Assembly (NCBI GenBank): GCA_964404925.1
Contig: CAYOLW010000005.1
Span: 5,458-69,457, forward strand
DNA: 64,000 nt
Direction: 5' to 3'
From: an uncultured Candidatus Saccharibacteria bacterium
Lineage (GTDB): Bacteria; Patescibacteriota; Minisyncoccia; Phycocordibacterales; UBA9973
The notes beneath the pieces are model-generated. The model made no database searches and was not told where the DNA came from. It saw only the letters and a program-made list of their open reading frames with translations. The position numbers and the translations under genes are program-made. Positions 2,850 through 45,135 of the stretch are shown here, one piece after another (position 1 is the stretch's first letter; each line of letters begins with the position of its first letter).

Positions 2850-2853
2850 AAAA

Positions 2854-3255
2854 TTAAACAGATGGCTGTTCTTGTCTTTCTAGGTCTAAAAGTTGCTTTT
2901 CGAGTTTAAGAATTTCTTCTTGGACTTTTTTGATTTGATCTTGTCCTTCACCCATTTTAATATCAATTTCTAGATTCTTACGTTCAGCTTCAAGTGCTTG
3001 TTTTGTAAATTCTATTTTATCATGTAAATTTAATTTATTATAACTATCTATTTCAAAAGCTTTTGCAGGGTTTATTCCCGGATATTTCTTCATATCAATC
3101 CCCCATTTAGGTTGAAAGTCATTAAAGAATTGCTGGTCCGCCGTACTGTTTGTCTGCGCTTCTACACCTTCTACAGCAGTTGTTATTGCAGCAGCAATTG
3201 TCATGCCCCTTCTAGCTTTTCCCCTTGTAAAAATTTTCTCAAATGGATTTTTCAT
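2854..3255 (-). CDS. hypothetical coiled-coil protein, first gene of the ferric reductase operon
   Basis: ORF with a 4-nt gap to the downstream gene; heptad-rich C-terminus; no recognisable domain. Confidence 0.35.
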   Translation of the reverse strand: MKNPFEKIFTRGKARRGMTIAAAITTAVEGVEAQTNSTADQQFFNDFQPKWGIDMKKYPGINPAKAFEIDSYNKLNLHDKIEFTKQALEAERKNLEIDIKMGEGQDQIKKVQEEILKLEKQLLDLERQEQPSV

Positions 3256-3309
3256 ATTTTTGTACTTAATTATTTTTAATATATACTATACACATTATAA
3301 CACATATAT

Positions 3310-3339
3310 TTGCCAAAAAAATCAAATTCGTGTAATACT
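3310..3339 (+). promoter_or_regulatory. sigma70-like promoter (TTGCCA-18-TAATAC) 6 nt upstream of the topA ATG; leaderless transcript likely
   Basis: Hexamers read directly from sequence; no SD. Confidence 0.4.
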
Positions 3340-3345
3340 GGGCTT

Positions 3346-5574: not shown

Positions 5575-5582
5575 ATTCAATA

Positions 5583-5610
5583 TTGAATTAAATACATAAC
5601 TGCTATAATA
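5583..5610 (+). promoter_or_regulatory. promoter TTGAAT-16-TATAAT, 8 nt upstream of the rel ATG
   Basis: Consensus -10 TATAAT at 5605-5610; ATG at 5619. Confidence 0.45.
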
Positions 5611-5618
5611 TACTTCAT

Positions 5619-21770: not shown

Positions 21771-24141
21771 TTTGGATAATAGTTTCGAGTAATTCTTTTG
21801 GATAAAGAGGTTTCTTCTCAGCAAGACCCTGATGATACAGCACGGTTGATGGCGTCAACCCAGGCAATGTGTTCACTTCTATTACCAGCAATTCCCCGCT
21901 TTGAATATTCATAAAAGCATCAATTCTTGCATAGCCAGTAAGGCCAATCTTTTGCGCCAATTCTTCAATTAATTTTTTAGTTTTCTTGATTGCTTTTTGC
22001 TTAACCACACTACCCGGTGGTGGAGTGAGGTTAACCCCAGTACCGCCTTGGAACTTCTCCTCCAGAGAAAGCACTTCACCTTCGGCAATAGTGATACTTG
22101 GATTCAGCGCATGATATTTACCTTTGTGTTCAAATAAACCCACCGTTACTTCAACCCAACCTGTTACCTTTTTGTGTTTGATTTTATTATCAACCACTCT
22201 AACCTTGTCAGTATAAATAAACTTTTCAAACATTATATCGTTTAATTTTGTTGTAGGCATTTCAACGATAGCATCCTGACTGGTTAATGTTCCAACAGGT
22301 ATGAAACTCGTCGCTTCAAACAGAAATTGCAAGTAGTTCATGAGGTCTCGTTCGTTGAATAAATGCGCCACACCCGTTGAGCATCCATCATCCTTGGGTT
22401 TAACTATCACAGTATTGGCTCCGAGTTGTGCCTTTAAAGCACGCCAAAACGCACTCACGTTTTGCAATTTCTCAAGCTCTTTGACTGTATACACTGCTTG
22501 CTCAGCAATACTCAGTCCTTTTATTTTAGCTTTTCTTATAAATTCACCAGTGTCCCATTTGTCCATACAAAGTCTAGAAACATGGGAATTAGAACCATTA
22601 TGTTTTACTTTGTTTTTCTCCAAAATAGCCTGGATTGTGCCGTTTTCACCAGCACCACCGTGTAGACCTAAGAATATAAATTTAGATTTATCTATCAATT
22701 CTTCCATAGTTATTTGTTCAGGTCTGAAGAAATCTTCTGTTGCATCACCAGGCTCAAGCATCAACTCTTCTTTGATTGGTTTGACCATATTGACTACTTT
22801 ATCGTAATTCTTTTTTGCTTCTTTTACGTTATCCAGGATTTCTTCGACGGTGTGATTTAGTATGAGCGCATAGGGTAGTTTCCATATTTCTCCTTTGAAA
22901 CCAAGCAAGTGTGGGATTGGTTCGTAGATCTTAGATTTCTTGAGCTTGAGCCACACATTGGTACCACTCATCAGTGATACTTGTCGCTCGGATGTATCCC
23001 CGCCGAATAGTACGGATACAGGTTTTCTTTTAAGATTTTTCTTGGATTCAATATTTGTATTAAATTTTACCCCTTGCCTCTGTGCAGAATTTTTAATAAC
23101 AAAACGCAAAAGCTCTCCGTGGCTCATTCCAATACGAGAAGACTGCTGGAACAAGAAACTATTTTGCTCCATTCCTGAGATCGTATTAAAGTCAGAGAAC
23201 CATATGTTGCCATCCGGCATCAACCATCCATCAAAACGAGCAAAATCTTTCATTCCAAAAAGAGAAAAAATTTGAGATGCTTGCACACGAATATTATTAA
23301 TCACTTCTTCGGAAAAACGTGGAGGGCAGTGGTATTTAACCTGGTTAGTTGGTAGATATTTCTTACGAAAGTCAAAAATCCTACCTTCATGGTAAGTCAT
23401 TTCAATTTCGGATGGTAACAATGCTACCGGTAGACCAAGTTTGTTTTGTAAAACTATTACAGTAAACTCGCGTCCAGTTGCAAAAGGCTCTAACACAACG
23501 CGTGTGTCCATGCGTTTAGAAAAAATGATATTTGCCTTTTCTAATGCTTCTTTGGGATTGTGGACAGTGAAAACCCCAATACTTGATCCAGAGGTAGCTG
23601 GCTTTACTATTGCTTTATCTATTTTATTTTTCTTAAAGAATTCCTTGATAACCTTTTCATTATCTGATGAATAAATCTTCAATAGCGCAGAAGGCAAAGT
23701 ATGGAATCCATTTTGACTTAATGTTTGGTTTGAATTGTGTTTATCAAAAGCTTCTTTGCAAGACTTAGATCCAGATCCAACAAACGGGACATTGTGTTTT
23801 TCTAAAAATTTCTGTATTTCTCCGTCTTCACCAAAGGCTCCATGCATAGCCGGGAAAACAATATCTACTGATTTCAACAATTTAACTAAGGATGTATTAT
23901 TTAACTCCTTCGCATGATTAGCTAATTTAAAATCAAAATCTGATGGGGTATTAGAATAAAGTTGCGCTTTTGATATCTTGTAAGCTTTCTTTTTTATATC
24001 AAAATATATTGGTACTACTTCAATACTGTCAGCATCCAAGTGATCAAGCACACTCCGAGCCGAATTAAGCGATATGCCCCTCTCGAGTGATGGTCCACCG
24101 GTCAAAACTGCAACTTTGAATTTCTTTGTTTTTTCAGTCAT
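21757..24141 (-). CDS. ddl: tandem-fused double D-alanine--D-alanine ligase (two complete Ddl/ATP-grasp modules in one 794-aa polypeptide)
   Basis: Module 1: KFKVAVLTGGPSLERGISLNSARSV ... KPATSGSSIGV ... SDFNTISGME. Module 2: KPVSVLFGGDTSERQVSLMSGTNV ... KPKDDGCSTGV ... ARIDAFM ... EVNTLPGLTPSTV. Confidence 0.75.
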   Translation of the reverse strand: MTEKTKKFKVAVLTGGPSLERGISLNSARSVLDHLDADSIEVVPIYFDIKKKAYKISKAQLYSNTPSDFDFKLANHAKELNNTSLVKLLKSVDIVFPAMHGAFGEDGEIQKFLEKHNVPFVGSGSKSCKEAFDKHNSNQTLSQNGFHTLPSALLKIYSSDNEKVIKEFFKKNKIDKAIVKPATSGSSIGVFTVHNPKEALEKANIIFSKRMDTRVVLEPFATGREFTVIVLQNKLGLPVALLPSEIEMTYHEGRIFDFRKKYLPTNQVKYHCPPRFSEEVINNIRVQASQIFSLFGMKDFARFDGWLMPDGNIWFSDFNTISGMEQNSFLFQQSSRIGMSHGELLRFVIKNSAQRQGVKFNTNIESKKNLKRKPVSVLFGGDTSERQVSLMSGTNVWLKLKKSKIYEPIPHLLGFKGEIWKLPYALILNHTVEEILDNVKEAKKNYDKVVNMVKPIKEELMLEPGDATEDFFRPEQITMEELIDKSKFIFLGLHGGAGENGTIQAILEKNKVKHNGSNSHVSRLCMDKWDTGEFIRKAKIKGLSIAEQAVYTVKELEKLQNVSAFWRALKAQLGANTVIVKPKDDGCSTGVAHLFNERDLMNYLQFLFEATSFIPVGTLTSQDAIVEMPTTKLNDIMFEKFIYTDKVRVVDNKIKHKKVTGWVEVTVGLFEHKGKYHALNPSITIAEGEVLSLEEKFQGGTGVNLTPPPGSVVKQKAIKKTKKLIEELAQKIGLTGYARIDAFMNIQSGELLVIEVNTLPGLTPSTVLYHQGLAEKKPLYPKELLETIIQNAEY

Positions 24142-31214: not shown

Positions 31215-31571
31215 ATGTTTGATTTCAATCAACCGCCAAAAAAAGAAAATCATGCAGTAAAGAAAATTACTGAGGAGGATTTGAATGAATTGCTTAGACC
31301 AATACCACCCCAAATACAACAAAGTGCTTTATTCCAAGCAGCACTTTCGTATTTAGCACACAACGCAGGGAGTTTAAAGGAAATCATGGGATCAATGAGC
31401 GGTATGATAAAAATAGAGGAACTTGCACGAACACTAAAGGAAAGCCCCCTTGATGGTACAACAAAAATGCTCATTGGTTACAACTTAGCAGAACTACAAC
31501 AAAATCCAGTAATGATGGGCCATGTTGACCAGTATCTAACAGCAACAGCAGATTTTTACATACAGGATTAA
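31215..31571 (+). CDS. hypothetical small protein
   Basis: ORF only; 4 nt after asd. Confidence 0.3.
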   Translation: MFDFNQPPKKENHAVKKITEEDLNELLRPIPPQIQQSALFQAALSYLAHNAGSLKEIMGSMSGMIKIEELARTLKESPLDGTTKMLIGYNLAELQQNPVMMGHVDQYLTATADFYIQD

Positions 31572-31649: not shown

Positions 31650-32096
31650 ATGAGAAAACACAGTTTACCATTTATCATAACCTCTAATGTTTTTTTGTTT
31701 TTTCCTATTGTCGCGTCGCTATATGCCCAGGAATGGATATACTCTATATTTAGCTTTTTTCTACTTATAGCCTCTGTGGGGTTTCATTACACTCACTACT
31801 ATAATCAAAAAAGTTTTTCTCTCACCCGTTTTTTGTTTGGAGGTAAAAAATATAAAAATGAAAAGACGTTTCGTCTATTAGATTGGTCCCTTGCTGCAAT
31901 CGGTGCTTTATATGTATTTTATTTCATTTACGTTTCTCCTGCGGTTTATATTTTAAAACTAACTTCAGCCTTACTTTTCTTTGCCTCTTTTGTATTTTTT
32001 TTATTAAACTACAAAGTTGGTAACTACAAAAAATACCACCCATGGTTCCATGTATTTACTCAGACGCTCCTTGGGTTTATCGTATTGTTTCTATAA
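31650..32096 (+). CDS. hypothetical 4-TM membrane protein
   Basis: Hydrophobic ORF. Confidence 0.35.
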   Translation: MRKHSLPFIITSNVFLFFPIVASLYAQEWIYSIFSFFLLIASVGFHYTHYYNQKSFSLTRFLFGGKKYKNEKTFRLLDWSLAAIGALYVFYFIYVSPAVYILKLTSALLFFASFVFFLLNYKVGNYKKYHPWFHVFTQTLLGFIVLFL

Positions 32097-32117: not shown

Positions 32118-33209
32118 TTAGAATCCTTCTTTTTTTAACTGCTCAACGATATCTCTTTCTTTTTTAGAAAGTTTGTTTGGTATTTTAATATGAGTACGAA
32201 TTAGTAGGTCACCACGTCTGCCTTTGTGTGGTACACCCTTGCCCTTAACTCGGAGAATTTCACCCACAGCAAGGCCCTCTGGTATAGTGACCTCAATTTT
32301 ACCGTCCAGTGTATCTATGGTGTGCTTGGTACCGAGTAATGCATCGGTAAGCTTGATGTCCAGATTCATAATTAGATCAACACCCTCTCGATGCAAATGT
32401 GCGTGTGGAGTCACCCGGAGTTTGATATACAAATCTCCAGCTGTTCCATGGGACACTGCTTCACCCGCACCACTCATACGCAGGGTGTCGCCATTATTAA
32501 TACCCTCTGGTATGTTAATAGTTATTTCTTCTTCTGTACGATGCACTCCTTTACCCTTACAATCATGACAAGGTTCTTTTGGTATTTCTCCTCTGCCGGC
32601 ACAGACGTCACACACACGAGTACTTGATATGGTTCCCAGTATAGTACGTTTAGCTTCTTGAATTTTTCCTTTACCGTGACAGTTTTTGCAAGCATCCATT
32701 TTAGTGCCTGGTTTTGCACCCTTACCGCTACATGTTTTACAAGTTCCAGTTTTAGTTAAAAATACTTTTTTGGAAACACCAAAAACTGATTCTGCGAAAG
32801 TTATTTGAATTTCGGTAGAAATATCACGGCCTTTATTTTTCTGCGCCCGACCGCCACCAGCACCGAAGAAATCACTGAAAATATCGTTCAGATCAAAATC
32901 AGCATCCCCGCCAAATCCGCCCTGGAAGCCAGAAAAATCAAAACCCTCAAATCCACCGAATCCGCCACCGCTTTGGCCACCACCAAATCCGCCCATATTC
33001 TGATAATTTGAGCCAAATTGGTCATACTGAGCACGTTTCTGATCATCTGAAAGGGTCTGATATGCCTCATTAACCTCCTTGAACTTCTTCTCATCCCCCT
33101 CCTTTTTGTCAGGGTGATATTTGTGGGCCAACTTATAAAAAGCCTTCTTAATTTCTTCTTTAGAAGAACCTTTATTTACCCCTAATATTTCATAGTAGTC
33201 TTTGGACAT
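32118..33209 (-). CDS. dnaJ: molecular chaperone DnaJ
   Basis: J-domain with HPD ([10 protein letters not shown]), G/F-rich linker, four CxxCxGxG zinc-finger repeats. Confidence 0.9.
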
Positions 33210-33269: not shown

Positions 33270-34724
33270 TTAAATCATCGGTTCGGCTTCTTCAGTTTTT
33301 TCTTCAGTTGAGCTATTTGATTTACCAGAAATTGCTTCTTTTTCTTCTTTACTGCGGATGATGGTAGCCTCTTCTTCTTCAATCAGTCTCTGAGCCGCGT
33401 CCTTGGTAATAGCAAATTGATGTCGGGAAGCAGCCTTGATCTCGTCGCGATAGGACGGATGAGTTGGCGGCAATACACGCAGTGTCTCTGCTGAGAATGG
33501 GTCATAGCTTTCGCCATCAATAGTCATTTTGATATAGAATTCACCGACGGCCAGGTTGATCATGTCCTTTACTCCGAACAGCGGATCGAATTCAGATTTA
33601 AGCCTCGTCGCATCTTCACCACCCACACGGAAACTAATTATACTTCCGGTATTACCAAGCACCGCCTGATAAATCTTGGGGTTAATTTGACCCACGTACT
33701 GATGTGCCATTGTTAGGTTCAATCCGTACTTACGCGCCTCTGACAGAATATTCTCAAATGTCTGAGTAACCACGTTTTGAAACTCGTCTACATATATATA
33801 AAAATCTTGTCGCATATGCTCGGGAATATTAGCCCGCTCCATACCCGCCTGTTTAATCTTGGTCAAGAACATTGAGCCAAAGAAAGATGAATTTTCTTCA
33901 CCAATACGGCCTTTGGACAAATTGATTAACACAATTTTCTTTTCATTCATTAGTTGCGCAATGTCAATTTTGTTTTCCTTCTGTCCAAAAATATTACGAA
34001 GCAACGGATCAGAGAGGAATTGACCAAGCTTGTTCACCAACGGAATAATAGCGTCGGTGTCGAACTTCTCGGACCAATCGGCGAATTCGATAGCGAAGAA
34101 TCTCTTCACCATGTCGTCTTGGATATATTCCACCACCTTCTGACGGTAGTTACGGTCGGTCAACATAGAAATCATTCCACGCATGGTAGCGTATGGATAG
34201 TCAAGTAGTGCCAAACAGGTAAAACGAAACACGTGCTCGAGTCTCGGGGTCCAGTTAGAACCGAACTGCTTTTGGAACACCTCAATCAAACCTTGGGTCA
34301 ATTGAAATTTGAAACCAGGGTCAACATTAGAAAGCGGATTGAAAGATGCTGGGAATTCAGAATCCGAAGGGTCCAAGATGCAAACATCATTAATGCGTTC
34401 TTTGGGAATGTAGTCGAGCATCGAGTCTATCACATCACCGTGCGGGTCAATGAGACACAGTCCATGCCCATAAGTTATGTCTTGGCGAAGGAAAAGTTCT
34501 AGGAGTTTAGTCTTACCCACACCGGATTTACCAATGATATACAAGTGGCGACGACGGTCGACTCTTTTGATGCCAAAAATATACTTTTTCTCTTCAAGCG
34601 CAGCCACATAGTTGGTCCGTCCAATAAAAGACACATCCTCAGGGGCCACTTTACCATATGCTGGCAATTCTGGTGGTGGTGGACCGTATTTGATTATCTG
34701 AACTCGATTGGGTTTGGACGTCAT
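33270..34724 (-). CDS. soluble P-loop NTPase of the HerA/FtsK/TraD-TraG superfamily (paralog of 37144-39528)
   Basis: Walker A IIGKSGVGKTKL; LIDPHGDV; Walker B YIYVDEFQN; paralog alignment (FGIKR.DRR.H.YI.GKSG.GK, LVN.SKGRIGE.NS, MAHQY). Confidence 0.55.
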   Translation of the reverse strand: MTSKPNRVQIIKYGPPPPELPAYGKVAPEDVSFIGRTNYVAALEEKKYIFGIKRVDRRRHLYIIGKSGVGKTKLLELFLRQDITYGHGLCLIDPHGDVIDSMLDYIPKERINDVCILDPSDSEFPASFNPLSNVDPGFKFQLTQGLIEVFQKQFGSNWTPRLEHVFRFTCLALLDYPYATMRGMISMLTDRNYRQKVVEYIQDDMVKRFFAIEFADWSEKFDTDAIIPLVNKLGQFLSDPLLRNIFGQKENKIDIAQLMNEKKIVLINLSKGRIGEENSSFFGSMFLTKIKQAGMERANIPEHMRQDFYIYVDEFQNVVTQTFENILSEARKYGLNLTMAHQYVGQINPKIYQAVLGNTGSIISFRVGGEDATRLKSEFDPLFGVKDMINLAVGEFYIKMTIDGESYDPFSAETLRVLPPTHPSYRDEIKAASRHQFAITKDAAQRLIEEEEATIIRSKEEKEAISGKSNSSTEEKTEEAEPMI

Positions 34725-34761
34725 ATTTGATATTAGATGTTATAAGTGTATCATAATAAAT

Positions 34762-35457
34762 ATGAAAATTCATAGATTCATAGGCGATTTTGACTTTCGG
34801 AAAAACACCATAAATATTGAGGACCCAGAGATAATCAAACAGCTAAGGAACGTGCTACGCATGGAGCCTGGAGAGACTATTATCCTGTTTGATGGTAAAG
34901 GTATGGAGGCTGAAGTAGTAATAGAATCCATAAACAGTAAAAGCATTTTGGGGAATATAATAAGCAAAAAGGAGGTTTCAGGTGTAAGTAAATCTGTATC
35001 ACTTTATTTAGCGATTTTAAAGAAAGAGAATTTCGAACTAGCGGTACAGAAATCCGTAGAATGCGGAGTGTCCAGAATAATCCCAGTTATAACAGAACGC
35101 ACAGTAAAGACAGGACTCAATATAGAAAGGATTAATAAAATTATTCGCGAAGCAGCAGAACAATGCGGACAAAGTTTGTTACCAGATATTCTGCCCTCTA
35201 TGCCCTTCAACGACGCACTAATACAAGGACGAGAAAGCGAGGACAAAATCCTATTTCATTTAGTACGAGAAGAATACACACCAGCCAAAGATACAAATTC
35301 TATAAGTATTTTTATTGGACCAGAGGGTGGATTTACTGATAAAGAAATTGAACTAGCAAAAAAATCCGACTACACTATAGCTTCTCTCGGTGCACTCACC
35401 CTCCGTGGCGAAACTGCTGCCATCATCGCCACCTACCGAGCCGTTCAAGGTATCTAG
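34762..35457 (+). CDS. rsmE: 16S rRNA (uracil1498-N3)-methyltransferase RsmE
   Basis: HRFIGDFDF N-terminus; IILFDGKG...; SPOUT C-terminal IGPEGGFTDKEIELA; start taken at MKIHRF (the track began 54 nt upstream). Confidence 0.8.
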   Translation: MKIHRFIGDFDFRKNTINIEDPEIIKQLRNVLRMEPGETIILFDGKGMEAEVVIESINSKSILGNIISKKEVSGVSKSVSLYLAILKKENFELAVQKSVECGVSRIIPVITERTVKTGLNIERINKIIREAAEQCGQSLLPDILPSMPFNDALIQGRESEDKILFHLVREEYTPAKDTNSISIFIGPEGGFTDKEIELAKKSDYTIASLGALTLRGETAAIIATYRAVQGI

Positions 35458-37151
35458 TAAACTTCCTGCTGATAACATTTTTCACAATACACTATCTCGG
35501 GGCGATCTGGGGCGTAGCTGGTTTTCATGCCGGTATTACACTTGGAACAATTGCGGTTGTATAGCCTCCATTTATTGATTCTATTTATTCTTCTTTCATG
35601 ACGACAGTTAGGGCACTCTCTCGGCAACGGTAAAGTAAACCTACGCAGTAACTCCAATTCACCAAAAGCTATCCGGTAAGGCTTGGAACATTTTTTACAA
35701 GAAACGACTTCTTTGGTTATAGTATCTTCTACCTCAGAGATACTATCAGGTAAATCTTCGGGCTTTATCGTGGGTGTATGTTCTCCACTTTTAACTTCAG
35801 AATATATAAAACCACTTTTTGCTATTTCTTCTTTAGACATTGGGAAATACTGTATAGCATAAGACGCATTGTATGCAAAAGGAGATAAATCATAAGGAAA
35901 GAAATCACCATACCGAAAAACCCGGCCCTTGGTGTCTACATAAGGATCTTGATCCATACTAGCGATGATTTCATCTCTTAGTTTAAAATACTCTTCTTTA
36001 GAATATTGCTTGTTTAAAATACAATATTGCTTATTACGCAAACCAACACAACCAAAACAATCTTTGGAATTAACCACATACATTGAATACTCAACATTTC
36101 GAACATTATTCCATACACCAGAACAATATTTGATTTGATAGCCACCCTCTCCGGCAGTTATCGAATCGATACTTTGTTCAAGTCCATTACCCCATTCTCC
36201 AATATCATAATTATCTTTAAACGGGGGCAACGTTATAAATTGGCAATATCTAGAGTCTTCAGACATAACTGTCATATAGCAATCATGCACATTCTTAGAA
36301 GAATACACATATTCACCAGTCGAGTTAACATTCATGCGTCCATAGACTGCACGCTTTGGGAATTTGTTCCAAAAATTAAATATTTCTCCTTGAATAGCTT
36401 GATGGGCAGAATATCTATCAAGGTTCATTTCTTGTATTTTTTTCTTATATTCTTCTTTAGAATAAGGCTGATTAAATATGTGGTAACTTTTGTTTCTCAA
36501 ATTCACACAGCCAAAACAATTTGTACAAGCAACACAATCCTTGGAATACCACACGTCCACTGATTCTGGGCAATTTTCCGAGAAAAAAATATGTGAACCA
36601 TCTCCTCCGATACATTCATAAGCAAATTCTGTCTTATTGATCATCAAACAGTCCATTACCTCCTTGGAGTGGTTAATTACAGTAGAATAGTAAACATTCT
36701 CACAAAAATCAGCATTAAAAAGTAGGTAGCAATTTTTGCATGCACCAGCATGGTTGATGTATTCGCTATTAACTAAAGTCGTATAAGAAACTATTAGGTT
36801 CATCTTTGGTGTATTCAGCATCAAATCTTTAAGTTGGTTAAAGAAATTAATATTGGGATTATAGTCCAGTGCGTATTCCCCACCATCCCATTTATCGCCC
36901 CACCAACACGAACCACAATATATTGATTTATGTACTTCTGGATCAAAGATAGTAACTACGTTTTTACTACACAAACCACAAACGCTTTTATATAAAGTCC
37001 TTTCATTACGAAAAGACATCCTTTTTTGAATTCTGCATTCCGGGCAAAAAGTCGGTGCAGGAACTTTGATTTTCTCGTAGAAAGAAAAATCCTCGGGTTC
37101 AATATTGAAATCCTTTTTACAATTCTGACAATTTTTAGTTTCTTTATTCAT
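35454..37151 (-). CDS. large (565 aa) cysteine-rich protein with multiple zinc-ribbon/treble-clef-like CxxC pairs and internal repeats
   Basis: About 45 Cys; N-terminal CQNCKK...CPECR, C-terminal CKKCSK...CPNCRH...CSKCNT...CEKC; internal repeat C[FV]GCV[NG]LRNK[SQ]Y.I.N.(P/Q)YSKEEY occurs twice; 8-nt overlap with the upstream ATPase gene. Confidence 0.5.
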   Translation of the reverse strand: MNKETKNCQNCKKDFNIEPEDFSFYEKIKVPAPTFCPECRIQKRMSFRNERTLYKSVCGLCSKNVVTIFDPEVHKSIYCGSCWWGDKWDGGEYALDYNPNINFFNQLKDLMLNTPKMNLIVSYTTLVNSEYINHAGACKNCYLLFNADFCENVYYSTVINHSKEVMDCLMINKTEFAYECIGGDGSHIFFSENCPESVDVWYSKDCVACTNCFGCVNLRNKSYHIFNQPYSKEEYKKKIQEMNLDRYSAHQAIQGEIFNFWNKFPKRAVYGRMNVNSTGEYVYSSKNVHDCYMTVMSEDSRYCQFITLPPFKDNYDIGEWGNGLEQSIDSITAGEGGYQIKYCSGVWNNVRNVEYSMYVVNSKDCFGCVGLRNKQYCILNKQYSKEEYFKLRDEIIASMDQDPYVDTKGRVFRYGDFFPYDLSPFAYNASYAIQYFPMSKEEIAKSGFIYSEVKSGEHTPTIKPEDLPDSISEVEDTITKEVVSCKKCSKPYRIAFGELELLRRFTLPLPRECPNCRHERRINRINKWRLYNRNCSKCNTGMKTSYAPDRPEIVYCEKCYQQEVY

Positions 37152-39528
37152 TTCCTAGTATCTGGCGCAGGATTTCTTCTGGGACTTCCTTTACTTTTTG
37201 ATTATTTTGAGGCTGTGCTGGTATTTCTTGTGATGCTTTTTCTTCGGGTTGTGGTTCTTCTTTTATTCCTGGTTTAGGTTCTTCCGTTACTGGCTCTTCG
37301 TATTTAACTGGTTCTGGTTCAATATCTGGAACACTAACTGGCTCAGGAACAAAAATATTTTCAGGTTCTTTTATAGGCTCTGGGGTGTAAATTGGCTCTG
37401 GCTCTTTTACCGGTTCTTCTAATTTTATTGGTTCTGCGATATAGGACACCTCTTCGACAATTTCAGGTTTTGATTCCTCAATATTTTTTTCTGGGATGAC
37501 TTCTTCTATTTCTTTCGCTACTTGGGAAGCTGCGATGAGATTCTTTAGTGCATCCATGCGGTCACCGCTTGCACTGCGGTCTGCTGGATTATTCTGCTTT
37601 ATTTCTTTTTCAATTGGTTTGAGCGCTGATAATGATATTGGGGCTGGTATCTCAACTTTTTCTTTTGGTGTTTCTTCTTTTATGTCACCTTTCTTTAAGG
37701 CCTGATCTAATGCGGATTTCAGAGAACTATTCTGTCCGGCTTCATACTGAGGCTTCTTGACCTTGGGGTCGCGGGGGGCAAAAGTTTTCTTGATGCCGGC
37801 GATAAATCCTGATTTAGGCGCATTGTTTTGATTTCTATCTTTCCAATTATTGTCTCTGTTTTGGTTAGGCGCGCCGGCTGGTTTATTGTCTTTAAAGGTC
37901 ATATCCCTCTTCTGCATATCACCAGTTTTAGGTTTATCATCAACTGCGCCGTCACTGGCAAATTCAATACCGAGGTCAGACAAGGGCTTGTAATACACTG
38001 CTTTGTTTTTAGCGGTATCGGACTCATTCTTGAGAGGTTTCAATTCTCCGGCTTTTATCTTGGTTATACAATCCTTACAATACACCGGTCGGCCAGGCTG
38101 CGGCTCGAAAGGCACAAAGGTGTCATTGCCGCAGACAGAACATTTTGCTTTAAATTTATCCCCTCCGGAACCAGGTCCACCGGATTTGCTCGTACCCGTA
38201 CCGCCTTCACTGGAAGCCACAGTGTTACTCCACTCGATTATTTCTACTTCGACTTCTTCACGGTTGCGGCAATACAAGGCGCGTGAACTTTCGATAACGG
38301 CCTTTTCTATTTCTTTGTTTACACTTTTAATAAGCGGGGGGATGGTCTTGGCAGAAAACGGGCGCGAGGTGATACCATCAATCATGAGTTTCAAATATAC
38401 CTTGTAGTTCGGCAAGTTCACAATATCCGATGGAGTGAACTCTGGATCAAATTCTTTTTCTAAATATTTAGTATCTTCGGCACCGGTACGGAAAATAATC
38501 ATCGTTCCTACGTTACCGAAAATAGAGTCACGCATGGATGAGCTTTCTTTGGTCACAAGCTGGGCTGTATACTGGTGCGCCACAGTGAGCGAGAGTCGAT
38601 ACTTACGAGCTTCAGAAAGAATGTTCGCAAAAGAATCTGTAACGAAGTTCTGGAACTCGTCGACATACAGATAAAAGTCTTTACGCAGGTCCTCGGGTAT
38701 ACGCACGCGCTCCATGGCAGCAAGCTGGATTTTCGTAATTAACATTCCACCAATCAATCGAGAGTTGTCCTCACCGATGCGACCCTTGGATACGTTCACG
38801 AGCAGAATCTTGCCTTGGTTCATGAGGTCGAAAATGTTGATGGTGCTTTTCTGCTGACCGACGATGTTACGGATAACGAAAGTAGAAAGGAATTGACCCA
38901 CCTTGTTCTGAATCGGTGCGATAGCTTCGTTACGAAATTTGTCCTGCCAGGCTTCATATTCATGCACCCAGAATGCCTTAATAACCGGGTCCTTCAAATT
39001 ACCAATAATCATCTGACGATAATCCTTGTCCACGAGCATACGGGTCACACCGAGGAGTGTTGTACCCGGAGTGTCGAGCAGCGCCAAGATGGTGTTGTTC
39101 AAAATATACTCCATACGAGCAGACCAAGCATTGGCCCAAATCTTGGTAAAAATACCCATGAGTCCGGATGCCACCAGGTGCTTGTGCTCAGGGTTTTCTA
39201 TTTCGAGCACGTTGAATCCGATATGGAAGTCTGTATCTGCTGGGTTGAAATACACCACGTCTTTGATACGCTCTGGAGGAATAGAAGAAAGAATTGTCTC
39301 CACGAGCTCACCGTGCGGGTCCACCACGCAGACACCTTCACCGTTGACGATATTCTGATAGACCATGTTGGTCATGAGCCCTGATTTACCAGTACCGGAT
39401 TTACCCAGGATGTACATGTGCTGACGGCGGTCCTTCCTCTTGATACCAAAGAGTTGGAATTGGTCACGATAGGTCGTGTATCCGATATATGTTATGTCCC
39501 GATTCTCCGGGAGACCTGGAATTGCCAT
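37144..39528 (-). CDS. HerA/FtsK/TraD-superfamily P-loop ATPase with C-terminal C4 zinc ribbon and long Pro/Glu-rich low-complexity tail
   Basis: Walker A ILGKSGTGKSGL; VVDPHGEL; Walker B YLYVDEFQNF; zinc ribbon CSVCGND...CKDC; tail repeats EPVKEPEPIYTPEPIKEPENIFVPEP... Confidence 0.55.
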   Translation of the reverse strand: MAIPGLPENRDITYIGYTTYRDQFQLFGIKRKDRRQHMYILGKSGTGKSGLMTNMVYQNIVNGEGVCVVDPHGELVETILSSIPPERIKDVVYFNPADTDFHIGFNVLEIENPEHKHLVASGLMGIFTKIWANAWSARMEYILNNTILALLDTPGTTLLGVTRMLVDKDYRQMIIGNLKDPVIKAFWVHEYEAWQDKFRNEAIAPIQNKVGQFLSTFVIRNIVGQQKSTINIFDLMNQGKILLVNVSKGRIGEDNSRLIGGMLITKIQLAAMERVRIPEDLRKDFYLYVDEFQNFVTDSFANILSEARKYRLSLTVAHQYTAQLVTKESSSMRDSIFGNVGTMIIFRTGAEDTKYLEKEFDPEFTPSDIVNLPNYKVYLKLMIDGITSRPFSAKTIPPLIKSVNKEIEKAVIESSRALYCRNREEVEVEIIEWSNTVASSEGGTGTSKSGGPGSGGDKFKAKCSVCGNDTFVPFEPQPGRPVYCKDCITKIKAGELKPLKNESDTAKNKAVYYKPLSDLGIEFASDGAVDDKPKTGDMQKRDMTFKDNKPAGAPNQNRDNNWKDRNQNNAPKSGFIAGIKKTFAPRDPKVKKPQYEAGQNSSLKSALDQALKKGDIKEETPKEKVEIPAPISLSALKPIEKEIKQNNPADRSASGDRMDALKNLIAASQVAKEIEEVIPEKNIEESKPEIVEEVSYIAEPIKLEEPVKEPEPIYTPEPIKEPENIFVPEPVSVPDIEPEPVKYEEPVTEEPKPGIKEEPQPEEKASQEIPAQPQNNQKVKEVPEEILRQILGNE

Positions 39529-39580
39529 AGGGAAATTATACCCTGTAGTAGATTTTAGCGAAAGGCCTTTATTAGGTATT

Positions 39581-40021: not shown

Positions 40022-40291
40022 TTATAACATTTTGCAAAATGACAAAACGTTCTTGCCTTGCTTAGTTAAATAATGTAATACATAGCGACCTTTGTATTGC
40101 TTTTGAATTAGCCCAGCATCTGCAAGCTTCCTCGCATGATCAGAAATAGTCATAAAATTAATATTTAAATATTCAGCAATTTTATCTACTGGTAAACCTG
40201 GTTTACTATTTACAAGTTCCAATATTTGAATCCGGCGATGATTGGCAAAACTTTTTACAACTTTCTCAATCTTTTTATATTGCATACTCAT
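40022..40291 (-). CDS. ArsR-family winged-helix transcriptional regulator
   Basis: FANHRRIQILELV...DKIAEYLNINFMTISDHARKLADAGLI. Confidence 0.65.
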   Translation of the reverse strand: MSMQYKKIEKVVKSFANHRRIQILELVNSKPGLPVDKIAEYLNINFMTISDHARKLADAGLIQKQYKGRYVLHYLTKQGKNVLSFCKML

Positions 40292-40338: not shown

Positions 40339-40686
40339 TTATTTTGTTAGTTTTTTATTAGACTTAGATTTTTTAGGTTTTGGTGGAGGCAGAGAGTCGG
40401 CGATGTTGCAGAGTATTTCTGCTAAGTTTTTAATGTGCGAAAGCTGGGATTCTTCTACCAGGTAATACGGCTTGGATCCGGGATAGGCTTCATCCTTCTC
40501 GCAAATCCCCTCCAACTCTGCGGATGCGGGGACAATCTTCACATACAATTGGTCGTCACAAATAAGGGCAACTACTTTGCCACTCGCATACAAAGCATAT
40601 TCACCAAACATTTTCCGCACCGAAAAAACCTCGGGTTGTCCTAGTTTTTCTAAAATGAATTCTACGGTTCCTTTCTGGGTGGACAT
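40339..40686 (-). CDS. TfoX/Sxy N-terminal-domain protein
   Basis: RKMFGEYALYASGKVVALICDDQLYVK matches the TfoX_N signature. Confidence 0.6.
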   Translation of the reverse strand: MSTQKGTVEFILEKLGQPEVFSVRKMFGEYALYASGKVVALICDDQLYVKIVPASAELEGICEKDEAYPGSKPYYLVEESQLSHIKNLAEILCNIADSLPPPKPKKSKSNKKLTK

Positions 40687-40688
40687 TG

Positions 40689-41645
40689 TTAATTTTCTTT
40701 TAATTGACTAATAACGTAGTCAATCCAACTCTGATACCAGTACCACGTTTTTACAACCATAACACCAAAACCCTTGGCGGAATTTTTACCATCATTATTT
40801 TTCCAAAAAAGTGTGTGTTGGTGCATTCCAAAATTTTTAAAACCGGCTTCGTTTACAAATTTAATAACTTGAGTTGCAGAGAATTTCTTTTTTTCAGTTT
40901 CTTCCTTAACCCAATATTGTCTTGAAATATTTTTTGCTAAATCTGATTTAGGGTCAATAAATTCTATAACTCTGTCTGCCTGCCCTTTTCTTTTTGCTTC
41001 AACTTTTGTAAACAACAACCTATATGCGAATCTTTCGCTTCCAACCTCTCTTTCAGACAATTCATTATCAAACTTTGCAATATAAGATATTACGTTTTGA
41101 GGTATATAGTTCTCTTTGTCTTTTATAACCTTAGACTGTGAATAATCTAACTCTGAAAATTGGAGACTTAGTGCAAGATTGTTGTCCAAACCATACTTCT
41201 CGCCATGTAATTTTTTAAGATAAAAATTAAAATTTAAAGCACAAGCTTGATATCGCGCTGATAAGTATGAGTCTAGCGAACTAGCTTTTCTGTGTTCAAT
41301 TTGATTCCTTAATCCAATTAAAAATTTTAAATTATTTATAGTATCTTTATCAATAGGGCAACTAGGTTCTGATATACATTTACTTAAATCCCAATACCTG
41401 ACACTTCCGTCTGTATTAATTTTATATTTCTTTAACCTACCAATTCTTTCAAAATGCTTATAATCTATACCATTTGCCCTATAGTAGGCATGTAAAAGAT
41501 AAGTCCATGAGATTATAGAAAGAACAATAAAAGACTCAGTTTTGAAAGTAATTAACGGATTATTATAAATTTGAACAGCTGAAAGCATAGCTTCTCTAGC
41601 CTTTTTAATTAAATCTACTTTTTCCGAAAAAATCTTTCTTACCAT
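40689..41645 (-). CDS. HEPN-domain (Rx4-6H) abortive-infection-like protein (DUF3644-like)
   Basis: N-terminal LSAVQIYNNP; putative HEPN catalytic motif LIGLRNQIEHRKAS. Confidence 0.5.
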   Translation of the reverse strand: MVRKIFSEKVDLIKKAREAMLSAVQIYNNPLITFKTESFIVLSIISWTYLLHAYYRANGIDYKHFERIGRLKKYKINTDGSVRYWDLSKCISEPSCPIDKDTINNLKFLIGLRNQIEHRKASSLDSYLSARYQACALNFNFYLKKLHGEKYGLDNNLALSLQFSELDYSQSKVIKDKENYIPQNVISYIAKFDNELSEREVGSERFAYRLLFTKVEAKRKGQADRVIEFIDPKSDLAKNISRQYWVKEETEKKKFSATQVIKFVNEAGFKNFGMHQHTLFWKNNDGKNSAKGFGVMVVKTWYWYQSWIDYVISQLKEN

Positions 41646-41689: not shown

Positions 41690-43588
41690 TTACGCTTTAT
41701 TTTCGTCGTTTACGTCTGTTGCTTCTGCATCGCGGACTTCGGCTGGTTGTTCCTCGGCTGCGGTGCCTGGGTTTGGTTGTTCCCCTCCGGCCTTGGCCAT
41801 TACTTCACCAATCTTTTGCATTTCATTGGATAGTTCTTCTGTGGCCTTCTTGATAGCTTCCATATCGCCTCCGTCTTTGACAGACTTCAATGCATCGATT
41901 TTGCCTTGAACTCCACTTTTCACATCTTCAGGCAATTTAGCTTCATTGTCTTTCAAAGCTTTTTCCGCAGTATACATAATCATCTCTGCAGTATTCTTCA
42001 CATCTACCAATTCTTTCTTCTTCTTGTCTTCTTCGGCATGCAGCTCGGCGTCGGCCTGCATTTTCTTGATATCTTCTTCTTTCAATCCTGATGAAGCTTC
42101 GATTTTGATTGATTGAGATTTGCCAGAAGCCTTGTCTTTCGCAGTTACATTCAATATTCCGTTCACGTCTACATCAAATGAAACTTCCACTTGCGGGATG
42201 CCGCGTGGGGCCGGTGGAATACCGTCAAGGATGAATCGGCCGAGGGGTTTGTTGTCACTCGCCATTGGGCGCTCACCCTGCACGATGTGGATTTCTACGC
42301 TGGTCTGGTTGTCGGCTGCTGTAGAGAATACTTGGGATTTGTTGGCTGGGATGGTGGTGTTCCTTTCGATCAATTTTGTCGCCACGCCGCCTAAGGTCTC
42401 GATACCGAGTGACAGCGGAATAACATCAAGCAGCAGCACATCGCGCACATCACCTTGTAATACTCCTGCCTGCACCGCAGCACCGAGGGCCACAACTTCG
42501 TCTGGATTGATAGACAGGTTCGGACTCTTGCCGAAAACTTTCTTCACCTCTTCGACGATTTTCGGCATACGGGTCTGGCCTCCCACCATGATGATTTCGT
42601 TGATATCGTTCATGGTGAATCCTGAAGCCTGCATTGCACGCTTGGTTATTTCGATAGCTCGGGTTACGTATTCATCAGCAATAGATTCGAGTTGGGCTCG
42701 GGTCATTTTGAGCAGCAAGTGCTGTGGACCTTCGGCAGTAGAGGTGATGAACGGGATGTTGATTTCTGTCTCAATAGCTGTTGAAAGCTCAATCTTGGCC
42801 TTCTCGGCAGCTTCATCAAGTCTCTGCAGTGCAAGCTTGTCATTGCGGACATCTACTCCAGAAGTCTTCTTGAACTCTTCGGCAATCCATCCGATTATCT
42901 TGTGATCAATGTCACGTCCTCCCAGATGACTGTCTCCGTCGGTAGACTTAACTTCGATAACGTCATCGCCGATTTCAAGTACTGACACATCGAATGTTCC
43001 ACCACCAAAGTCGAACACCACAACTTTCTCATTCTTCTTTTTGTTGAAACCATAGGCCAAAGCTGCAGCTGTCGGCTCGTTGATGATACGCTTCACATCA
43101 AGTCCTGCGATAGCACCGGCGTCCTTGGTGGCCTTGCGTTGTGCATCGTTGAAATATGCCGGCACAGTGATGACAGCTTCGGTTATCTTTTCGCCAAGCT
43201 TGGCTTCTACGTCGGCCTTGATCTTGGACAATATCATTGCAGAGATTTCTTCTGGTCGCATCCATTTGTCTCCAATTTTTACTTCGGCACCACCGGTTGA
43301 ACCTTTTTGAATTTTGAAAGAAACATTTTGCAAATCCTTCTGCACTTCTGGATCTTCGAAATTGTGACCCATGAATCGTTTAATACCATAGACAGTATTT
43401 TCTGGATTAGTCACAGCCTGACGCTTGGCCAAAAGCCCCACTAATCGGTCGCCGTTTTTAGCAATCGACACGATGGACGGAGTGGTACGAGCACCCTCGA
43501 TGTTTTCAATAATTACCGGTGCACCACCCTGAATTACGGACACCGCTGAATTGGTTGTACCCAAATCGATACCTATTATTTTACTCAT
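41690..43588 (-). CDS. dnaK: molecular chaperone DnaK (Hsp70)
   Basis: [15 protein letters not shown]; full-length Hsp70 signatures. Confidence 0.95.
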
Positions 43589-43676: not shown

Positions 43677-43698
43677 ATAGAGTATATATGATAATATA
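43677..43698 (+). promoter_or_regulatory. promoter TTGTCA-16-TAATAT upstream of the PaaX-like gene, overlapping an imperfect palindrome (TTGACTTGT-N18-ACTTGTCAA, 43641-43676) that also lies upstream of dnaK
   Basis: Read directly from sequence. Confidence 0.35.
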
Positions 43699-43703
43699 GA
43701 AGC

Positions 43704-44222
43704 ATGTCAAGCAAAATTGATTATTCCAAGAAAATATTGAAGTCTTTGTCCGAAAAACCGGCAATTTCAGTAGAGACATTGAAGTCCAATCAAGACAAAA
43801 AAGCCTGCTATGCCATAGCTCGAGCGCTCAAGAACCTGGCAGAAAACGGTCTAATTGAAATTCATAAATCAGAGAATCGCGATTTCGTAAAAATCACTAA
43901 AAAAGGTAAAAGCAAATTAAACAGTATCAAACTCGAAGGTACAGATGCCCTGGTCCCAGGCGGATGGGACGGACTGTGGAGGATAATAATCCTCGACCTA
44001 GACGAGTCTCGCAAAAATGAAAGAGAAAGCCTGCGCTATCTACTGAAAAAAGCTGGCTTTGTATGTGTGAAAAATACGGTCTGGGTTTCCCCTTACCCGT
44101 ATGAAAATTTGTTTATGAATATCAAGAAAGACTTGGATCTATCTAATGAGATAATGATTATCGTCACAGATAAAATTGACCCAGAAACACAAAATATATT
44201 TTTTAGTGCGATGGTGAAATAA
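43704..44222 (+). CDS. PaaX-family-like transcriptional regulator (wHTH plus PaaX_C-like domain)
   Basis: C-terminal W.G.WRIIILDLDESRKNERESLRYLLKKAGF...NTVWVSPYP parallels the PaaX signature. Confidence 0.5.
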   Translation: MSSKIDYSKKILKSLSEKPAISVETLKSNQDKKACYAIARALKNLAENGLIEIHKSENRDFVKITKKGKSKLNSIKLEGTDALVPGGWDGLWRIIILDLDESRKNERESLRYLLKKAGFVCVKNTVWVSPYPYENLFMNIKKDLDLSNEIMIIVTDKIDPETQNIFFSAMVK

Positions 44223-44223
44223 C

Positions 44224-44529
44224 CTATTCAATCTGCTCCCCCATCCAGGCCTTGTAGGCCCGATTCATCCGGCGAATATCCACCCCTGCAATCAAAGGAA
44301 TTGCATAGCTGTGATGCTGCGAAATTAATTCATTTACATCTTCTATTTTTGACTCCAGTGTTGTAATCATAATCATAGTCTGAGAAATTTCTTTAATCTC
44401 TCCTTCCCAACGATAGATAGAATGGACTGGCCAGAAATCAACACAGGCCCCCATCTTCTGCTCGATAATGAGTTTACCCAGAAGCTCTGCTTCTTCCTTT
44501 TTTTCACATGTAGTGTAAATAAATACCAT
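44224..44529 (-). CDS. cutA: CutA1 divalent-cation tolerance protein
   Basis: VFIYTTCEKKEEAELLGKLIIEQKMGACVDFWPVHSIYRWEGEI. Confidence 0.75.
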   Translation of the reverse strand: MVFIYTTCEKKEEAELLGKLIIEQKMGACVDFWPVHSIYRWEGEIKEISQTMIMITTLESKIEDVNELISQHHSYAIPLIAGVDIRRMNRAYKAWMGEQIE

Positions 44530-44532
44530 ATA

Positions 44533-45135
44533 TTATTCTTGTACTTTATATTCAAACAAATTCACTCGAGCAGCACGGATAACGCGATCACCTAATTTAT
44601 AACCTTTTTGAATTACCGCCGATATTGTGTGGTCATTTTCTTTTTTGTCAGTGCTCACCATGTCTACCGGTTCATGCAGATTATGGTCAAAAACATCTCC
44701 CACTTCACCAAAGGATTTAACTCCGTATTCTTCAAAAACATTTTGCATTTGAGAATAAATGTATTCCACCCCCGTGCGCCAACCAGCGTCCACCTTCTCC
44801 CAGGCCTCTTTGTTGGAAAAAGCCATGTTAAAGCTATCAGAGACGGTCAGAAAGCGTGATATGATGCGTTCTCGCAAAGATTCAGACATCATGGATTTTC
44901 TGTCTTCTTCCTGCTTCTTGTAATTCATAAATTCAGCCCGTTCCTTCTGCCATCCGGTCAAGTATTCTTCTTTTTCTTTTTTCGCCTGTTTTAGGTCTCC
45001 ACGCAGCTTCTTTAAGGTTTTCTTCAAGTCTTCTTCGCCGTCTTCGTTGTACTCGAATTCAACCACCTCATCCTCTGTTTCAGGGCTTAAATCTAATATA
45101 TTTTCTTGGTCTTTGTTATCTTGTTCGTCTTGCAT
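44533..45135 (-). CDS. grpE: nucleotide exchange factor GrpE
   Basis: Coiled-coil N-terminus; C-terminal VFDHNLHEPVD... Confidence 0.8.
   Translation of the reverse strand: MQDEQDNKDQENILDLSPETEDEVVEFEYNEDGEEDLKKTLKKLRGDLKQAKKEKEEYLTGWQKERAEFMNYKKQEEDRKSMMSESLRERIISRFLTVSDSFNMAFSNKEAWEKVDAGWRTGVEYIYSQMQNVFEEYGVKSFGEVGDVFDHNLHEPVDMVSTDKKENDHTISAVIQKGYKLGDRVIRAARVNLFEYKVQE

Follow-up and report, generated by a model that had tools for sequence, protein, structure and literature searches.

Introduction

Type IV coupling proteins (T4CPs) of the VirD4, TrwB and TraD type are the closest described relatives of the system considered here. TrwB is a DNA-dependent ATPase, and the C-terminus of TraD docks TraM. 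This report addresses a pair of T4CP-like ATPase genes, here called atpL and atpS, which bracket the gene of a 565-residue, very cysteine-rich protein (the Cys protein, the first member of a Cys family) on a 64,000-nucleotide stretch of DNA from an uncultured Candidatus Saccharibacteria bacterium (assembly GCA_964404925.1, contig CAYOLW010000005.1, positions 5,458 to 69,457 of the forward strand). The whole stretch is referred to as the window, and coordinates are window positions unless a related locus is named.

Patescibacteria account for much of bacterial diversity; their genomes are tiny, and most of their biology is unknown. A recent survey counted 5,713 VirD4-type T4CP homologues in 2,918 Patescibacteria genomes, approximately two per genome, of which 148 lie near virB4 (PMC12102498, Microb Genom 2025). 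In S. epibionticum the t4cp gene was not essential for epibiotic growth, while other genes of the type IV secretion system (T4SS) were, and the authors stated that exaptation of the homologues “cannot be ruled out” (PMC12102498). The genes atpL and atpS are very probably the same as these orphan homologues. Searched by term, the text of the survey contains no dnaK, chaperone, zinc or CxxC, and the dnaK-dnaJ context, the bracket of paralogs, the zinc finger and tail of atpL, and the Cys family are therefore not part of it. The locus described here gives the “orphan, possibly exapted” homologues of 2025 a concrete gene context and candidate partners. T4CP-like ATPases that may be exapted are already a known kind; what is new is an undescribed module and a new family of partner proteins. 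A Candidate Phyla Radiation protein-family paper makes no mention of zinc, VirD4 or TraG families (PMC6744442), and a literature search found no paper on the Cys family or the module. An earlier note on this DNA, made from the sequence alone, could not assign the combination to a described system, and it is indeed absent from Pfam, NCBIfam, PADLOC and the papers searched.

Three other described systems invite comparison. The DotL-DotM-DotN-IcmSW complex of Legionella is built on a T4CP whose long C-terminal extension is the scaffold for adaptors, and DotN binds zinc. However, DotL is membrane-anchored and belongs to the Dot/Icm T4SS, whereas the context of the present module is housekeeping; no sequence relationship was found between the adaptors of the DotL complex and the Cys family. 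The HerA ATPases (HerA-NurA, HerA-Sir2, HerA-DUF4297) share the FtsK/HerA superfamily with atpL and atpS, both of which are matched by DUF87. The small zinc proteins of the TIGR04272/PF23477 type carry the same finger as atpL and as the two ends of the Cys protein. This CxxC-x17-CxxC domain was shown by inductively coupled plasma mass spectrometry to bind zinc in the small Methanosarcina mazei proteins A00184 and A01980 (PMC12704099). Those are stand-alone small proteins, unlike the Cys protein, in which the fingers flank a duplicated, beta-rich core of about 380 residues.

A Conserved Module within the Hsp70 Operon

Together the two ATPases and the Cys family make up a conserved module of three gene families, often joined by cutA as a fourth gene. 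The module is chromosomal and housekeeping-like, and it is not mobile, phage-borne or defence-island-like. We tentatively read it as a Paceibacteria-specific, chromosomally fixed module, in which an exapted, soluble pair of T4CP-like ATPases would work with variable zinc-ribbon/beta-solenoid partners as adaptors, probably on nucleic acid; this reading is plausible, yet falls a little short of being probable. In the window the module sits within the Hsp70 (grpE-dnaK-dnaJ) operon, where the order read along the minus strand is grpE, cutA1, a PaaX-like gene on the opposite strand, dnaK, a variable insert, atpL, the Cys gene, rsmE on the opposite strand, atpS and dnaJ:

44533..45135, minus strand: grpE, first gene of the minus-strand order
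44224..44529, minus strand: cutA1, here between grpE and dnaK; a recurrent companion gene
41690..43588, minus strand: dnaK (HSP70, E 1.6e-243), upstream edge of the operon context
37144..39528, minus strand: atpL (794 aa), P-loop ATPase of T4CP-like (VirD4/TrwB/TraD) type; soluble, with a zinc finger and then a long tail that is disordered
37144..37151, minus strand: 8-nt overlap of the atpL stop and the Cys-gene start, sequence ATGAATAA (junction also given as ggaaATGAATAAag)
35454..37151, minus strand: gene of the cysteine-rich protein, 565 aa
34708/34762..35457, plus strand: rsmE (16S rRNA U1498 methyltransferase), opposite-strand passenger outside the module
33270..34724, minus strand: atpS (484 aa), the paralog of atpL, likewise a soluble ATPase of T4CP-like type; its acidic tail is short
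32118..33209, minus strand: dnaJ, directly 3' of atpS

The four open reading frames (ORFs) of positions 33270-39528 were found where the earlier note had drawn them, with the two ATPases flanking rsmE and the Cys gene, and the 8-nt overlap that it described is seen in the sequence. The rsmE gene does not belong to the module: it is a conserved passenger on the opposite strand, converging on the Cys gene, and it occupies the same opposite-strand position in 18 of the 80 loci of the ATPase-seeded scan described below. Its own identity is secure (TIGR00046 at 144 bits against a cut-off of 41; Methyltrans_RNA and PUA domains, Pfam E 5e-39; RsmE models at E 5e-52).

The surrounding DNA, with a GC content of about 38%, is ordinary chromosome, bearing topA, relA/spoT, parB, miaA, alaS, mnmA, typA, rpoA, ribosomal protein genes, ddl and alr. 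The highest-ranking homologs belong to Candidatus Pacebacteria, Paceibacterota, Nomurabacteria and further “Parcubacteria”. No T4SS channel (VirB/Tra), relaxase, pilus, integrase or phage gene was found in the 64-kb window or in the flanks examined, including those of the second gene order described below. The conjugation-like setting that the earlier note had considered is thus missing, and neither the conjugation nor the defence reading is supported.

Recurrence, Gene Order and Conservation

Two scans were made, one seeded with the Cys protein in one genome per GTDB species and one seeded with atpS in metagenomes. Each returned 80 loci, giving 160 related loci together, and the arrangement recurs in more than 100 independent contigs. 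Two gene orders account for the module. Architecture A, that of the window, reads grpE-(cutA)-dnaK-atpL-Cys(n)-atpS-dnaJ. Architecture B reads atpS-(cutA)-Cys(1-7)-atpL and has neither dnaK nor dnaJ in its vicinity (L004, L005, L007, L021, L041, L066, L079 and others). In both orders cutA1 recurs, either within the module or beside it, and in architecture B it stands between atpS and the Cys array. Since architecture B keeps the bracket without dnaK and dnaJ, the link between ATPases and Cys genes is the invariant part and the Hsp70 context is clade-specific. The earlier note had named ordinary housekeeping paralogs with conserved, unrelated neighbours as the finding that would speak against a module; dnaK and dnaJ are indeed conserved neighbours in one clade, but in the other clade the neighbours change and the ATPase-Cys link stays.

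At least one Cys paralog is present in 67 of the 80 ATPase-seeded loci. From the other side, an ATPase gene was found in 27 of the 80 Cys-seeded loci, and in 14 of the 33 (42%) with full 10-kb flanks. The gene order around the pair is tight in the informative loci, with dnaJ directly after atpS in 61 of 65 and dnaK upstream of atpL in 27 of 28. The atpL gene lies upstream of atpS in 43 loci, and it is missing from only one locus that has at least 9 kb of upstream sequence. Between the two ATPases, these 43 loci hold no Cys gene in 13 cases, one in 12, two in 11, three in four and four in three, and up to seven were counted in Cys-seeded loci. Extra Cys genes occur after grpE or around dnaJ (L025, L071, L096, L151), and tandem arrays reach nine copies per locus in the scan, with 12 in L003. 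Junctions are short: the gap from atpL to the Cys gene has a median of 10 nt and is at most 30 nt in 18 of 33 related loci (start calls being approximate), and for the gaps between Cys genes, many of which overlap, the median is 34 nt.

The closest sequenced relative (L166, JAGOSH010000003.1) has the same operon and the same 8-nt overlap of atpL and the Cys gene. Its Cys paralogs number three, including one that separates atpS from dnaJ, and it bears a different insert of about 6 kb between dnaK and atpL. The set of paralogs that fills the slot thus turns over between genomes. Within a locus, the paralogs share a median identity of 39% and a maximum of 60%, and they are therefore ancient rather than recent amplifications. 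Clustering of the paralogs did not separate the copies between the ATPases from those in arrays, so no dedicated ATPase-partner paralog can be defined.

Against this turnover in the Cys genes, at a median of 40% identity to the window protein, stand atpS at 83%, the atpL core at 81% (over 41 metagenome loci with a full-length core match), DnaK at 81%, GrpE at 68%, CutA at 64%, DnaJ at 63% and RsmE at 56%. These loci were selected on atpS, which biases the atpS value upward, but not on atpL or DnaK. Judged by identity, the ATPases are as conserved as DnaK.

One alternative denies any joint function: the operon region would be conserved and highly expressed, and mere descent would have kept ATPases and Cys genes side by side in it. 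The 13 of 43 loci whose ATPases are adjacent with no Cys gene between them fit this, as does the distance of most Cys genes of large arrays from the ATPases. Nevertheless, the bracket survives the rearrangement into the order and neighbourhood of architecture B, and the 42% of full-flank loci stands against a chance expectation of about 2-3%, an estimate that assumes a genome of about 0.7-1 Mb. The overlapping or very short junctions, and the zinc-finger type common to atpL and the Cys proteins, also speak against it, which makes mere neighbourhood improbable. That the three genes form a module, as the earlier note had proposed, and that they are evolutionarily coupled, is borne out by the same full-flank loci, by the 67 of 80 ATPase-seeded loci and by the two gene orders.

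Architecture B also has neighbours of its own. A divergent Nramp gene adjoins atpS in five loci (L004 6360-7670, L005 7051-8331, L041, L052, L070), and L004 carries upstream, at 2639-5955, a P-type HMA ATPase and an HMA-DsbD protein. Directly 3' of atpL, seven loci carry a surface protein of about 485 residues with a Lamin-tail domain (LTD), in some combined with PKD (L004 18341-19795, L005 16762-18285, L079 18726-20189, L007, L022, L032, L067).

The Soluble ATPase Pair

The two ATPases are paralogs, 46% identical over 407 residues (E 2e-131), and share the motifs GKSG(T/V)GK(S/T) (Walker A), DPHG(E/D) and YVDEFQN (Walker B), as the earlier note had read from the sequence. The parts of the longer protein are as follows:

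38269..39528, minus strand: atpL ATPase core (aa 1-420), with Walker A GKSGTGKS at aa 41-48, DPHGE at 69-73 and Walker B YVDEFQN at 287-293
38059..38154, minus strand: atpL zinc finger CxxC-x17-CxxC, zf_Tbcl_2 (aa 459-490), with C462, C465, C483 and C486 invariant
37147..38046, minus strand: atpL disordered acidic tail (aa 495-794, about 300 residues), pI 4.8, with short motifs conserved in the alignment

Like T4CPs, the pair has the P-loop fold family and motifs, and Pfam domain scores above cut-off. The atpL protein matches TrwB_AAD_bind (E 1.9e-14, 53.8 bits, cut-off 20.5; profile positions 12-316 of 387), TraG-D_C (31.5 bits, cut-off 22) and T4SS-DNA_transf (30.5 bits, cut-off 20.1), and atpS exceeds the gathering scores of the same three models. 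TrwB is the sole sequence relative of the ATPases in the Protein Data Bank (PDB) (E 8e-7), and a profile of atpS against PDB sequences gave no match. Along 87% of the atpS protein there is also 30% identity with a T4CP of an actinobacterial (Embleya) plasmid. That T4CP lies in a genuine Gram-positive-type conjugation cluster, beside a PrgI-family protein, an ATP-binding protein, which is probably a VirB4-type ATPase, a replication-relaxation protein and an NlpC/P60 protein. DUF87 is matched in both ATPases above its gathering score (E 4e-8 and 1e-5), more weakly than the T4CP models are, and HerA_C or HAS-barrel signatures and a neighbouring nuclease or Sir2 (NurA) gene, which would mark HerA, are not seen. 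Given the coupling-protein matches in Pfam, the TrwB match and the relatedness to the Embleya T4CP, the sequences place the ATPases as T4CP-derived rather than HerA proper. Of the former label “HerA/TraD-like”, the TraD half thus fits best, together with the TrwB and VirD4 models, and HerA is the weaker half. The family is very large, with 5,502 clusters (50% identity) at E<1e-30.

The differences from described T4CPs are equally plain. In both proteins the ATPase domain begins at most about 30 residues from the N-terminus, and no transmembrane (TM) segment is predicted, the highest 19-residue Kyte-Doolittle mean being 1.16 in atpL and 0.92 in atpS, so that the N-terminal anchor of T4CPs is missing and the pair is soluble, as previously proposed. 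The NCBIfam TraD/VirD4 equivalogs (TIGR03743, TIGR03754, NF045973) score 41-51 bits, below cut-offs of 250-647; compared with T4CPs, this is about 50 against 366-647 bits. Also unlike T4CPs, the two are fixed chromosomal paralogs located in the dnaK operon with DnaK-like conservation, no VirB4, VirB6 or relaxase gene is near the module, and atpL has an added zinc finger and a motif-rich tail.

The zinc finger of atpL is clear, at 47.9 bits (cut-off 36) and 44.7 bits (cut-off 27), with E 7.9e-13 for TIGR04272 and E 1.1e-11 for zf_Tbcl_2, and it bears out the zinc ribbon reported before. The tail is longer than the earlier description of about 170 Pro/Glu-rich residues: the Pro/Glu-rich part is only the last ~100-170 residues and a lineage-specific insertion, whereas the remainder of the ~300 disordered residues carries the conserved motifs FYKPLxDLGIEF, KPGIFxxIKKVF, NxALKxxLxKAL, PISLxxLK, DRSASxxxMxxLKxLI and a C-terminal KEVPE(D/E)(V/I)LR(K/Q)IL. 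Sequences of these motifs in the window protein include FYKPLADLGIEF and KEVPEDVLRKILE. Among the matches listed, core, zinc finger and tail are kept together in 120 of 120 homologs. The C-terminal end of atpS has a conserved EP(M/L)I of its own. An AlphaFold2 (AF2) model of atpL from the homolog alignment was of low confidence (pLDDT 45.5, pTM 0.26).

Many relatives of atpS at 40-54% identity (P0242, P0243, P0252, P0264) have an N-terminal extension of 250-450 residues with no Pfam match, which in P0252 starts with a hydrophobic, TM-like segment. These extended relatives may be membrane-anchored cousins of the soluble pair.

The family membership brings up secretion coupling. On this account, atpL and atpS would be TM-less coupling proteins of a distant Patescibacterial T4SS, the Cys proteins would be adaptors, as DotN/IcmSW are for DotL, or effectors, and DnaK and DnaJ would keep the Cys proteins secretion-competent. 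T4SSs are widespread in Patescibacteria (PMC12102498), and the ATPases do belong to the T4CP family. In addition, the long C-terminal tail of atpL with its putative docking motifs resembles DotL and TraD, and variable arrays of diversified paralogs beside a secretion ATPase resemble effector arrays. Yet there is neither a TM segment nor, in the window or the flanks examined, a channel gene. Only 148 of the 5,713 surveyed t4cp genes are near virB4, and t4cp is dispensable for epibiotic growth where the T4SS is essential (PMC12102498). DnaK-level conservation and ancient, stable paralogs are unlike effectors, and proteins with four to five or more structural zinc sites would make poor secretion substrates. 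We consider secretion coupling unlikely.

The superfamily likewise brings up defence against phages or other mobile genetic elements, with HerA/T4CP-like ATPases acting beside diversified zinc-ribbon sensors. PADLOC reports weak similarity of the ATPases to mad8 (E 3e-14) and to HerA models, the partner family is paralog-rich, and a gene of the candidate defence family PDC-S19 lies 1.2 kb upstream of atpL. The PADLOC matches are, however, of a generic P-loop kind, with no other MADS, Sir2 or nuclease partner, and genes of a defence island behave in the opposite way to ATPases that are conserved like DnaK and fixed in a housekeeping operon. The paralogs are old and not fast-diversifying, and the PDC-S19 gene, the only one of a defence type nearby, is carried by a variable insert that relatives lack and that is not part of the module. 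The Cys family has no match in INPHARED phages or in IMG/VR. The defence context that the earlier note had entertained is missing, and a role in defence is highly improbable. Membership in MADS or another HerA-based defence system was rejected as a class assignment, the mad8 match being partial (E 3e-14, 4e-11), the HerA models weak and no other mad gene nearby.

The Cysteine-Rich Partner Family

The 565-residue protein contains 32 cysteines, with 12 CxxC motifs and one CxxCxxCxxC run, and has an overall pI of 6.5. As in the two ATPases, no TM segment is predicted in it. It falls into three parts:

36867..37151, minus strand: two zinc fingers at the N-terminus (aa 1-95), the first CxxC-x24-CxxC with a basic helix after it (CPECRxxRRxxFRNE), the second CxxC-x17-CxxC; zf_Tbcl_2 and zf_Tbcl matches
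35727..36866, minus strand: central domain (aa 96-475), a beta-rich core that arose by internal duplication; C141, C209, C212, C215, C303 and C368 are conserved in it, and it has the motif YGEFxPYDLSPFxYNE
35457..35726, minus strand: zinc-finger pair of the C-terminus (aa 476-565), a homolog of the N-terminal one and basic, with a pI of 9.2

The earlier description as repeated CxxC units with internal repeats proved apt at both levels. The N-terminal module (1-86) and the C-terminal module (477-560) are 32% identical (E 2e-13), as seen against an ortholog, and each half of the core, read from the sequence, ends in SKDCxxCxxCFGCVxLRNKxYxIxNxxYSKEEY followed by a helix. PF23477 is matched at 27.5 bits (cut-off 27), and zinc-finger matches are present in 28 of 33 family members. 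The cysteines of the N-terminal pair are invariant in the family alignment, and about 22 cysteines are conserved overall, 16 of them in four canonical structural zinc fingers and about six in the core. From the domain type, zinc binding is predicted for the Cys protein and for the atpL finger.

The family has at least 7,991 homologs; the best of those listed are 519-597 residues long, mostly about 565, 48-76% identical and spread over several “Parcubacteria” lineages. No Pfam family was matched in the core of any of the 33 members. A profile of the family against PDB sequences gave only marginal LIM-type zinc-finger matches (E>=0.05). The AF2 model from the 33-sequence alignment is compact (pLDDT 80, pTM 0.83) and suggests a beta-solenoid-like core, and a Foldseek search with it against the PDB and BFVD gave no match at E<0.001. 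With a core that has neither a domain model nor a structural relative, the Cys-rich proteins are a new family. Left-handed beta-helix proteins were considered and rejected, the best PDB hits (GlmU, gamma-CA, LpxA/D) having only E>=0.27 and TM<=0.11, with no Hexapep match in Pfam.

So many cysteines suggest metal handling, in which the Cys proteins would be thiol-rich binders of Zn, Cd, Cu or Fe-S acting with CutA1 and transporters, and the ATPases would assist loading or turnover. The 32 cysteines with their CxxCxxCxxC run, the recurrence of CutA1 within or beside the module in both architectures, the divergent Nramp beside atpS and the HMA proteins upstream in L004 all fit such a role. The conserved cysteines, however, are mainly those of the zinc fingers, and the idea of metal storage was downgraded because the ~6 conserved in the core would not suffice to store or buffer metal. 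Only one clade has the Nramp link, and known metallochaperone NTPases are G3E GTPases, not of the FtsK/HerA type. Metal handling is thus very improbable.

A Working Model and the Evidence against It

In the reading that we favour, atpL and atpS would form a cytoplasmic ring, probably a hetero-oligomer, as family knowledge of T4CP and FtsK/HerA ATPases suggests. The tail of atpL and the C-terminal peptide of atpS would be docking sites, by analogy with the C-terminus of TraD for TraM; among the likenesses to T4CPs, such a docking tail is a probable one. The zinc-ribbon proteins, which share their finger type with atpL, would then be interchangeable and would act as adaptors, or as specificity subunits, through which the motor reaches its substrate. 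Nucleic acid would be the most likely substrate, given the basic CRxxRR helices, the DNA-dependent ATPase activity of TrwB and an extreme conservation that suggests a universal substrate. Co-transcription with grpE-dnaK-dnaJ would tie the machine to housekeeping or stress physiology, and not to conjugation or immunity. The model predicts a hetero-oligomeric ring, docking of tail peptides, zinc-finger-mediated targeting and co-regulation with Hsp70. If true, this would show clearly that a conjugation motor can be domesticated and put to housekeeping use.

Several points weigh against this model. Ring formation, an all-alpha domain and tail docking are argued from family knowledge, with the AF2 model of atpL at pLDDT 45. 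The Cys protein is near-neutral overall (pI 6.5), and the position in the dnaK operon could point to a protein substrate in place of nucleic acid. No Cys gene lies between the ATPases in 13 of 43 loci, and 19 of the 33 full-flank Cys loci are more than 10 kb from any ATPase, so the ATPases may not strictly need a partner encoded in cis, and the Cys proteins may act alone. In addition, TraJ of pIP501 is a T4CP that has no TM segment and yet serves a T4SS. In view of such TM-less T4CPs, atpL and atpS may be coupled to a Patescibacterial T4SS encoded elsewhere.

A protein substrate is the core of a further alternative, in which the ring pair threads or remodels polypeptides with DnaK, DnaJ and GrpE as a substitute for a ClpB-like disaggregase, and the Cys proteins are zinc-dependent co-chaperones or clients. 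The module is co-directional inside grpE-dnaK-...-dnaJ in nearly all close relatives, and Cys genes also stand directly after grpE or dnaJ (L025, L071, L096, L151). DnaJ and Hsp33 are precedents for zinc-finger chaperones, and EssC and VirD4 are FtsK/HerA-class ATPases that handle proteins. Nevertheless, architecture B keeps the bracket without dnaK and dnaJ, which makes the Hsp70 link clade-specific, and a T4CP-type disaggregase is without known precedent. A CIRCE/HrcA operator was not matched in the window with up to three mismatches permitted, so that there is no evidence for classical heat-shock control. Hsp70-linked remodelling of this kind is quite unlikely.

Beyond the favoured model of an exapted motor with zinc-ribbon adaptors, a bolder extension is that the module is an unrecognised, near-essential cytoplasmic machine of Paceibacteria, a domesticated conjugation motor for core nucleic-acid or protein remodelling with Hsp70, whose ancient paralogs would each set a different substrate specificity. 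This we regard as doubtful. The investment in the module is considerable: both ATPases match DnaK in conservation, and a single locus can hold as many as 9-12 paralogs of about 565 residues, in an array of at least about 17 kb on contigs of 0.6-0.8 Mb.

The Variable Insert and Other Features of the Window

Between dnaK and atpL, the window carries a variable insert of four genes:

40689-41645, minus strand: DUF3644 protein, 1.2 kb upstream of atpL; matches PDC-S19, a candidate defence family of PADLOC (E 6e-132)
40339-40686: TfoX_N gene
40022-40291, minus strand: MarR/ArsR-like winged-helix gene, 89 aa
39581-40012: SnoaL gene

Genes like the 89-residue MarR/ArsR-like one stand directly upstream of Cys-family genes in L100, L129, L132 and L158, with an overlap of 1-4 nt in all four. 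The protein may regulate the Cys family specifically, or may act as its dedicated partner. Upstream of dnaK, a sigma-70-like promoter near consensus (TTGACA-18-TATACT, 11 of 12 matches) is seen at 43681-43710 on the minus strand, and a TATAAT box lies at 39540-39545, about 10 nt upstream of the atpL start.

Elsewhere in the window, four ORFs have no Pfam match: 49354-50706 (minus strand, 450 aa), 56270-57694 (minus strand, 474 aa), and, both between asd and dnaJ, 31215-31571 (plus strand, 118 aa) and 31650-32096 (plus strand, 148 aa). The ORF at 9514-11028 (plus strand) fuses an HTH_3 (XRE-type) domain N-terminally to an EPSP-synthase/MurA-like enzyme. A 794-residue ORF at 21757-24141 (minus strand) consists of two tandem D-Ala-D-Ala ligase units, with the N- and C-terminal Ddl domains each present twice, and it overlaps the downstream alanine racemase ORF (20589-21824).

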